The notes under the pieces were generated by a model that saw only the letters and a list, made by a program, of their open reading frames with translations, did no database searches and was not told the origin of the DNA. From positions 62,001 through 126,000 of the forward strand of contig RSEE01000074.1 of assembly GCA_003971905.1 (NCBI GenBank): 64,000 bases of DNA, given 5' to 3'. The translations under genes were made by a program, and so were the position numbers. The DNA is from Moniliella sp. 'wahieum'. Taxonomy: Eukaryota. Of this stretch, positions 24,354 to 26,454 are shown one piece after another (within the stretch, counting starts at the first letter, position 1; every line of letters starts with the position of its first letter).

Positions 24354-26454
24354 TCAACGGCCGCCCGACATGGCCTTCTGCAGCGACCGCTTGAGGCGGA
24401 GCGAAGCACGGCGGAAGTCGTCCGCCTTGGCATCGTCCAAGTCCAGCACCTCGAGCGCCTTGGCCAGCTCCGTCTCCACCTGGTTCTTGGCTGCGCGCTT
24501 AAAGTTGGCCGTCGGGCTCGAGATGGTCGTCTCGGCCTGGTTGACCATCGCCTCAAGGTCGTTCTTGGCATCGTGGCGCGCCTGGAACTCCTTGTCGGAC
24601 GCCTTGAAGTTCTCCGAGTCCTTGATCATCTGCTCAATCTCCGCGCTCGACAGGCGGCCGACCGAGTTGGTGATGGTAATGTTGGCCTTGCGGCCCGACG
24701 TCTTCTCCTGCGCCGTGACCTTGAGCAGACCGTTGGCGTCCACCTCAAACGTCGTCAGCAGCTCCACCGTGTTCTTGGGCGCGGGCGGGATGCCAGTCAA
24801 CTCAAACTCGCCGAGCAGACGGTTGTCCTTGCACTGCGTGCGCTCTCCCTCGTACACGGGGAAGGTAACTTGGGTCTGGTTGTCCTCGACCGTGGTGAAG
24901 ACACGCGACTTGTTGGTCGGGATGGGCGTGTTGCGCGGCACCACCACACCAAACACGTCGCCCTGCATCGCCACACCGAGCGAGAGAGGAGCAACGTCAA
25001 GCAGCAGCAGGTTGGCCGTCTTGTCCGACGTCTGGCCCGTCAGCACAGCGGCCTGGACCGCAGCACCGTACGCAACCGCCTCGTCGGGGTTGATCGACTT
25101 GTTGAGCTGGCGGCCACCAAAGAACTCCGAGACGAGCGACTGGATCTTGGGGATACGCGTCGAGCCACCAACCAGAACAATGTCATCCACCTTGTCGGCG
25201 GGGATCTTCGAGTCCTTCAGCACCTTGGCCACAGGGTCGAGGGTGCCCTTGAACGCAGCGGCGTTGATCGACTCAAAGCGGGCACGCGTGATGCTCGCCT
25301 CGTAGTCCTCACCTGGAAGAGCGAGTCGACCTCGACGGTGGTCTGGGTGAGGGAAGAGAGGGTGCGCTTGGCACGCTCGCAGGCCGAGCGCAGACGACGA
25401 ACGGCACGCGCGTCGCCCGAGATGTCGTGGCCAGTCTTCTTCTGGAAGTCGGCCTTGAAGTGCTCGAGGAGCGCATTGTCAAAGTCCTCACCACCAAGGT
25501 GGTGTCACCAGCCGTAGCCTTGACAGCGAACACACCGCCTGTGATGTTGAGAAGCGACACATCAAAGGTACCACCACCCAGGTCGAAAATCAGCACGTTC
25601 TTCTCCTCCGACGACTTGGAGTCGAGGCCGTAGGCAATGGCAGCGGCAGTGGGCTCGTTAATGATACGCAGAACCTCGAGGCCAGCAATGGAACCTAAAA
25701 TTCGAGATACCAGTCAGAATGGATGATCCGCAGCAAAAAGAGGTCAGGACGGCAAGACTAGGTGGGATGCACTGGGCGCGCGCAGAGGCTCATACAGCAG
25801 TTGGAATAGTATGGGAGTCCTCACAGCCCCAAAGGGGCCTGCGGTATTAGCATGGAATACTGTTCTTAATCCCAGCCATGCTGCGCCCACAACCCCCATT
25901 GCTGCCGTCCAAAGGGAGTAAGGAGGAAGAAAAAAACGTACCAGCATCCTTGGTGGCCAGACGCTGCGAGTCGTTGAAGTAGGCCGGAACAGTAACGACG
26001 GCCTTTTGCACCTCCTTGCCAATCTTGGCCTCGGCAATCTCCTTCATCTTGGTCAGGACCATGGCGGAGATCTCCTGGGGAGTGAACTGCTTCTTCTCGC
26101 CGAGGTACTCCACCTCAATGACGGGGGAACCGTCACGGTCGACAACGGTAAAGGGCCAGTGGGCCATGTCCTTCTTGACATCCGGGTCGTCGTAGCGACG
26201 GCCGATGAGACGCTTGGCATCGAACACCGTCTGGCGCGGGTTCATCGCGCCTGGTTCTTGGCGGCATCGCCAATGAGACGCTCCGAGTCGGTAAAGGCAA
26301 CGTAGGAAGGGGTGGTGCGGTTGCCCTGGTCGTTGGCAATGATCTCCACACGCTCGTTGGTCCACCAGCCGACGCAGGAGAAGGTGGTGCCAAGGTCGAT
26401 GCCAATGGCACCCTGGTAGACGTCGTCGTTGACAGCAGGAATCTCAGCCGACAT
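24354..26454 (-). CDS. SSB1: Ribosome-associated Hsp70, SSB type
   Basis: Starts [27 protein letters not shown]. Contains SSB-specific segments ([30 protein letters not shown]) and ends KAMSGGR with no EEVD. Intron 25695..25941. Confidence 0.97.
25787..25877 (-). ncRNA. Intron-encoded double-guide box C/D snoRNA (predicted 18S and 25S rRNA 2'-O-methylation guides)
   Basis: Order on the minus strand: stem GGC; box C GGGAUUA (25867-25873); guide UAUUCCAUGCUAAUA (25845-25859, complementary to conserved 18S AUUAGCAUGGAAUA); D' CCGC; hairpin GGCCCC-UUU-GGGGCU; C' GUGAGGA (25818-25824); guide UCCAACUGCUGU (25794-25805, complementary to conserved 25S ACAGCAGUUGGA); box D AUGA (25790-25793); stem GCC. 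Outer stems flank it. The rRNA sequences are recalled, not searched. Confidence 0.8.

Follow-up and report, generated by a model that had tools for sequence, protein, structure and literature searches.

A probable box C/D small nucleolar RNA with unusual boxes in the SSB intron of Moniliella sp. 'wahieum'

The 64,000-nucleotide stretch of Moniliella sp. 'wahieum' DNA analysed here (contig RSEE01000074.1, positions 62,001 to 126,000; hereafter the window, numbered from its first letter) carries a minus-strand SSB-type Hsp70 gene, which contains a 247-nt GT..AG intron running from 25941 down to 25695, as given by the sequence and the reading frame. This intron likely encodes a functional box C/D small nucleolar RNA (snoRNA) that is processed from it, is about 91 nt long and has the orientation of SSB. 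Along the sense strand of the intron, the elements follow the order box C, guide, box D', hairpin, box C', guide and box D (Table 1). The candidate is probably a new member of the snR53 family that also bears an old U49/SNORD5-type guide, and its box pair is unusual but structurally coherent. The original prediction had described the 247-nt SSB intron, two nested stems and this layout of elements, and all of them are found in the sequence at the coordinates that it gave. Its overall interpretation is largely right, while the novelty of the RNA was overrated.

The assignment to the snR53 family is based on the guide next to D'. Its fifth nucleotide upstream of D' lies opposite the second A of 18S AUUAGC. 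The Neurospora crassa RNA CD11 is an intron-encoded snR53 homologue for 18S Am793, the equivalent of yeast Am796; the published drawing pairs its D' guide with 18S 5'-ACUAGCAUGGAAU-3' (PMC2780460; statements on the N. crassa RNAs and those carrying a PMC number refer to excerpts of the respective papers). Read upstream from D', the candidate has A,U,A,A,U,C,G,U,A,C,C,U,U,A and CD11 has C,U,G,A,U,C,G,U,A,C,C,U,U,A, with agreement at positions 2 and 4–14 counted from D'. Since the two guides stand in identical register, position 5 faces the same 18S adenosine in both. The spacing from box C to D' is also similar, at 22 nt in the candidate and 24 nt in CD11. By the letters and register of this guide, the candidate falls in with S. 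cerevisiae snR53, N. crassa CD11, snoStrip family CD_11 and plant snoR53Y, all of which share a D' guide for the 18S A796 equivalent. Within CD_11, the D' guide for yeast 18S-796 occurs in a wide fungal range, and the D guides are lineage-specific (PMC5824354). CD11 differs from the candidate in its D guide, which is for 26S A356 and not for the LSU (large subunit) site discussed below, and in its canonical boxes UGAUGA, CUGA and CUGA, which in the candidate read GGGAUUA, CCGC and AUGA. The resemblance between the two RNAs extends to U6: the D' guide of CD11 is drawn paired to U6 5'-GAUUAGCAUGG-3' for Am47 (PMC2780460), and 10 nt of the candidate guide are also complementary to U6 AUUAGCAUGG. 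Through its D' guide, the candidate should bring about 2'-O-methylation at the 18S counterpart of yeast A796; a further action on U6, as has been suggested for other fungi, is possible.

The second guide adjoins box D, and its fifth nucleotide upstream of D lies opposite the C of LSU AGCAG, a site that we take to be about C1508 of yeast 25S. Its closest counterpart is the D guide of N. crassa CD41, which is assigned to 26S Cm1489 and paired to 5'-AGCGGUUGGACA-3' (PMC2780460). Upstream from box D, the candidate reads U,G,U,C,G,U,C,A,A,C,C,U and CD41 reads U,A,U,C,G,C,C,A,A,C,C,U, so that positions 1, 3–5 and 7–12 are the same; at position 6, the U that replaces the C of CD41 would pair alike with A or G in the target. 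The identical register places position 5 opposite the same LSU cytidine. Homologues of the CD41 guide are named as Arabidopsis U49 and human mgh28S-2409, with none in either yeast (PMC2780460); the human 28S-Cm2409 guide is named elsewhere as SNORD5 (PMC8393311), and Arabidopsis snoR121 is assigned to 25S Cm1510, which is equated with human Cm2409 (PMC2685112). The site is thus methylated, or predicted to be, in N. crassa, Arabidopsis (snoR121) and human (SNORD5), and the candidate shares with these guides the core letters, the register to box D and the predicted cytidine. CD41 combines the LSU guide with a D' guide for 18S Gm1423 (snR56-type), whereas the candidate combines it with a snR53-type guide. 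The LSU cytidine expected to be methylated through the D guide corresponds to C1489 in N. crassa, C1510 in Arabidopsis and C2409 in human. Judged by the 18S and 26S fragments and the assigned sites of N. crassa, both guides pair over at least 10 nt next to D or D' and place the methylation site at the fifth position. Both targets proposed in the original prediction, the snR53 site in 18S and the SNORD5 site in LSU that S. cerevisiae lacks, are borne out by the registers of CD11 and CD41 and by the naming of SNORD5 for 28S-Cm2409.

The chance origin of this guide pair is negligible. Each guide has exactly one exact copy in the 64-kb window, with no second copy within two mismatches; from composition, about 1.5e-5 exact matches per window are expected for a 15-mer and 1e-3 for a 13-mer. 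Per 20 Mb, counting both strands at 61% G+C, the expected numbers of exact copies are 0.005 and 0.3, respectively. The two guides lie 38 nt apart on the sense strand of the intron, and the expectation for both within 60 nt and in order is about 1e-8 by arithmetic, which is still far below one when roughly 100 x 100 site pairs are allowed for. A search of metagenome contigs with a two-guide pattern of 22 fixed bases and a gap of 15–45 yielded one locus (contig L001, 1992–2049) and no orthologue. The match is of the size expected for a 22-base pattern, and it is attributed to chance: the contig is bacterial or phage-like, the locus lies within a 552-residue open reading frame (ORF), and box motifs are lacking. 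Among viral contigs, the 14-base 18S target was found at 112 loci, none of which has rRNA-like flanks.

The core is embedded in external helices. A terminal stem of GGC (25877–25875) and GCC (25789–25787) lies immediately outside boxes C and D and is continued by further helices, including the inner and outer stems, both of which are present in the predicted minimum-energy folds. In forward-strand letters, the outer stem consists of GGACGGCA at 25747–25754 with TGCCGTCC at 25903–25910. The flanks of the 91-nt core (64 nt before it and 92 nt after it) pair with each other at -43.7 kcal/mol, against -33.0 +/- 4.1 for dinucleotide-shuffled flanks; the observed energy is reached by 21 of 2000 dinucleotide shuffles and 20 of 2000 mononucleotide shuffles. 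The inner 117 nt also fold better than most shuffles (z -2.0, with 7 of 200 as good). External helices aid intronic box C/D RNAs that have a short terminal stem, and in the candidate they may offset the weak box C. An ordinary structured intron, whose helices bring the splice sites closer and whose rRNA complementarity and boxes are coincidental, would account for the unremarkable energy of the whole-intron fold (z -0.8, with 37 of 200 shuffles as good), and an 8-bp inverted repeat in 247 nt is not rare, with about 0.5 expected by arithmetic. Such a coincidence is nevertheless highly improbable: it would have to produce two exact complements of known methylation sites on the sense strand, each in the right register to a GA-containing box and in the order C-guide-D'-C'-guide-D, for which the joint expectation is far below one per genome, and it would have to reproduce the guide register of CD11 and CD41.

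The boxes deviate from consensus in a structured manner. Box C fits RUGAUGA at five of seven positions, including the invariant first GA, and reading by eye from the 5' splice site as far as the D' guide gave no UGAUGA-like alternative. Read as a kink-turn (K-turn), boxes C and D form the terminal stem GGC/GCC, a UGG bulge, sheared G-A and A-G pairs, and then U-U, U-A and A-U. Box D retains UGA, leaving both G-A pairs with box C possible, and the usual G-C is replaced by a U-A pair between box C position 6 and box D position 1. The C' and D' boxes give two successive G-C pairs in stem II, one of which takes the place of U-U. When the partners are swapped (C with D' and C' with D), stem II would contain mismatches. 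Since each stem II fits its own partner and the swaps do not, both motifs are internally consistent, as judged from this single sequence; the C'/D' motif is only partly compensated because D' ends in C. The U-A exchange and the substitution of G-C for U-U had both been pointed out in the original prediction and are present. Its description of the boxes as compensatory suits the U-A pair of C/D and does not extend to the final C of D', and it is drawn from one sequence. The accompanying statement that no box is canonical is too strong in view of AUGA, a recognised minor form of box D, and of C', which carries one change. Of fungal snoRNAs, 4.2% have another base, mostly A, in place of the first C of box D, and each position of D' varies in 15–45% (PMC5824354).

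Precedents exist for both deviations of box C. In boxes read from unmarked sequences, the orphan intronic RNA CD55 combines AUGAUUA with AUGA and so has the same U-A replacement as the candidate, while CD50, the U24 homologue, has AGGAUGA with the same G at position 2. Both RNAs were cloned or seen on northern blots (PMC2780460). Each of them has only one of the two deviations, whereas the candidate has both.

The variant D' raises the question of whether the RNA acts through one guide only. A half-functional snoRNA, with an active D guide and C/D K-turn and a D' guide silenced by the inability of CCGC to form a K-turn or K-loop, would be in keeping with the lack of a terminal A for the second G-A pair. 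This proposal is quite unlikely in view of the D' guide itself, which at 15 nt exceeds the D guide in both length and conservation, stands in the CD11 register and whose target is the conserved target of the snR53 family (PMC5824354). The same survey also includes fungal snoRNAs with variant D' positions (the 15–45% given above) among those still predicted to guide.

The distribution of changes further bears on whether the snoRNA has been maintained. Boxes C and D depart from consensus at 3 of 11 positions, in contrast to no mismatch to the inferred targets at 27 guide positions (Fisher p 0.02). Intact guides beside altered boxes argue for selection on the guides and against simple decay. A decaying snR53-type relic, whose boxes have drifted, which forms no small nucleolar ribonucleoprotein (snoRNP) and whose task is done by a canonical copy elsewhere in the genome, is consistent with three of four boxes being off consensus, including the conserved U of box C position 2 and the last A of D', and with the lack of an Rfam match. 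We consider it unlikely, as the guides are intact at 15 and 12 positions, the changes at box C position 6 and box D position 1 compensate each other as a pair, the flanking helices are retained, and the 64-kb window holds no second, near-identical copy of either guide.

Several points weigh against a functional snoRNA. In box C, G occupies the place of the normally strongly conserved protruding U, and the final C of D' breaks one G-A pair, for whose formation an A is needed. In Rfam 15, no family reaches its gathering score in the 64-kb window, and a search at E <= 10 with 601 and 126 bases gives nothing relevant. The targets were inferred from N. crassa fragments, from a fungal 18S primer in wide use, which includes 13 of the 15 bases paired in the D' target (as taken from a search listing) and from the text of the original prediction. 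Contigs of the public sequencing runs compared (X1, X2, X5 and X6) leave 25698–25917 uncovered and are silent on the snoRNA. Finally, single-base assembly errors appear close by, as three frame breaks in the host gene; since the breaks probably stem from the assembly, small indel errors could likewise sit in the snoRNA. Considering these points together with the guide and box evidence, we maintain a functional box C/D snoRNA as the likely reading.

No snoRNA family of Rfam 15 gave a convincing E-value, and profile similarity to snR53 or CD_11 members was thus not detected, although which snR53-type models Rfam 15 includes is unverified. The top C/D matches were ceN30 (E 2) and SNORD104 (E 7.8). 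The weak ceN30 alignment (E 2 to 9.8) concerns a repeated motif: GGCUG stands at 25873–25877 before box C and at 25824–25828 before box C' on the minus strand, and with two copies present the 3' GCC could pair with either. In the alignment, a half-size C/D RNA begins with the second copy. A 'mini-snoRNA' starting from GGCUGUGAGGA, considered on account of this alignment, was rejected: it excludes the better-conserved D' guide, and C' pairs worse with D than box C does.

The host gene belongs to the SSB group. For its last 319 residues, the best solved relative is 'Ribosome-associated molecular chaperone SSB1' (9r9o, E 1.7e-119), aligned to residue 612 of 613, and non-SSB Hsp70s score lower (Heat shock protein 70A, 7n6g, the best of them, E 3.9e-93; Hsc70, 6.1e-92). 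The intron with the candidate snoRNA is the single one seen in the gene, and its excision fuses ...ATKDAG in frame with the downstream SSB coding sequence. Among the public runs, of which the top one shares 0.32 of sampled words with the window, contigs from X1, X2 and X5 connect 25692 to 25940 and omit exactly 247 bases. The X1 contig shows no differences from the window across 114 bases of the upstream exon. Only this contig bears on splicing in this fungus, because X2 is probably DNA and X2 and X5 diverge by 10–20%; it provides modest support for splicing, as the type of the run is not on record.

From established knowledge of intronic box C/D snoRNAs, we infer snoRNP assembly, processing, RNA stability and both methylations. 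Box C/D snoRNAs are typically stable RNAs of about 70–120 nt to which Snu13, Nop56, Nop58 and Nop1 bind. The snoRNA would be transcribed inside the SSB pre-mRNA, and GGGAUUA and AUGA would build a C/D K-turn that keeps the sheared G-A pairs and U-U and exchanges G-C for U-A. The flanking helices would extend the 3-bp terminal stem, probably holding boxes C and D together on the spliced or debranched intron, where Snu13 and the Nop proteins would assemble at the apposed boxes. After splicing and debranching, exonucleases would trim the intron to the protein-protected core. The resulting snoRNP would use its D' guide to methylate the 18S A and its D guide to methylate the LSU C, with U6 as a possible further target. 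The output of guide RNA would follow SSB transcription, as for any intronic snoRNA. The original prediction had proposed a coupling of rRNA modification to SSB expression; the intronic location on which it was based is present, and the coupling would be no more than the general consequence of such a location.

The locus reveals no new mechanism, and hosting in a translation-related gene is the usual arrangement. Vertebrate U14 lies in hsc70 introns, and the candidate resembles RPL7/snR59 and NOG2/snR191 of intron-poor fungi, with one snoRNA per intron in a translation-related host gene. Intron-poor Ustilaginomycotina are reported to retain snoRNA-bearing introns (PMC8476143). In a literature search that was judged mainly by title and left the supplementary tables of the fungal survey (PMC5824354) outside its reach, no snoRNA in an SSB intron was reported.

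Basidiomycete snoRNAs are poorly catalogued, and this locus offers a concrete, testable case of a guide RNA that would escape consensus-based pipelines. The expectation that consensus scanners would overlook it was reasonable: no Rfam model finds the RNA, and the fungal snoStrip survey dropped candidates with a non-canonical C or D box (PMC5824354). An Rfam-based search in Pleurotus found only seven snoRNAs. Two rRNA methylations are predicted in this fungus, one of them at a site where the modification is absent in S. cerevisiae and present in N. crassa, plants and humans, and the candidate unites two old guide functions, a pairing listed for neither N. crassa nor yeast. It is conceivable, though doubtful, that box C/D snoRNAs of smut-type basidiomycetes routinely use re-coded K-turns, with partner-specific stem II pairs (U-A; G-C/G-C) and long external helices that offset a weak box C. 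If widespread, such K-turns would explain the snoRNA families missing from Basidiomycota in canonical-box surveys, among them U14, which is one of several families reported absent from this group (PMC5824354). They would also provide a natural test of the tolerance of Snu13 for G at the protruding position.

Table 1. Features of the SSB gene, its intron and the candidate snoRNA, in window coordinates
Feature	Position	Strand	Basis or remark
SSB exon 1, from ATG at 26454; one single-base frame break near 26250	25942..26454	-	ORF list, sequence
SSB intron, spliceosomal, 5' GUACGU ... UUUUAG 3'	25695..25941	-	sequence, frame across junction, contig joins
Intron splice sites	GT 25941-25940, AG 25696-25695	-	sequence
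Outer stem, 5' arm GGACGGCA, 9 bp including the following G-U pair	25903..25910	-	sequence, fold
Inner stem, 5' arm UGGGCGC	25883..25889	-	sequence, fold
Predicted mature box C/D snoRNA core, about 91 nt, intron positions 65-155	25787..25877	-	ends inferred from terminal stem
Box C variant GGGAUUA	25867..25873	-	consensus RUGAUGA; positions 2 (U to G) and 6 (G to U) differ
D' guide GUAUUCCAUGCUAAUA	25845..25860	-	15 nt complementary to 18S stretch UAUUAGCAUGGAAUA
Box D' variant CCGC	25841..25844	-	consensus CUGA; by guide register at the place of the CD11 CUGA
Short hairpin GCCCC-UUU-GGGGC between D' and C'	25826..25838	-	sequence, predicted folds
Box C' GUGAGGA	25818..25824	-	one change from consensus
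D guide UUCCAACUGCUGU	25794..25806	-	12 nt complementary to LSU ACAGCAGUUGGA
Box D variant AUGA	25790..25793	-	consensus CUGA
Inner stem, 3' arm GCGCCCA	25773..25779	-	sequence, fold
Outer stem, 3' arm UGCCGUCC	25747..25754	-	sequence, fold
Candidate branch point CUGAC, 19 nt before the 3' splice site	25713..25717	-	sequence
SSB exon 2, to stop codon; single-base frame breaks near 25500 and 25313	24354..25694	-	ORF list

Apart from the intron, the SSB frame shifts three times without intervening sequence, at about 26249–26253, 25498–25504 and 25310–25315 on the minus strand. Each shift sits at a short single-base run (KNQA|AMNPR, GDT|HLGG and SLFQ|GEDY), and the shifts look like single-base undercalls of the assembly rather than marks of a pseudogene. 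When the window was crudely scanned for RUGAUGA...CUGA pairs flanked by a terminal stem of at least 4 bp, two minus-strand stretches were returned, 49786–49934 and 14785–14949, neither of which is convincing. Near the 3' end of the intron, the CUGAC at 25713–25717 is presumably the branch site, in line with the fungal branch-site consensus. A second CUGAC with the appearance of a branch site, which may be in use or masked by the outer helix, lies at 25743–25747 on the minus strand, about 50 nt before the 3' splice site; it directly follows the 3' arm of the outer helix and shares one base with its end.

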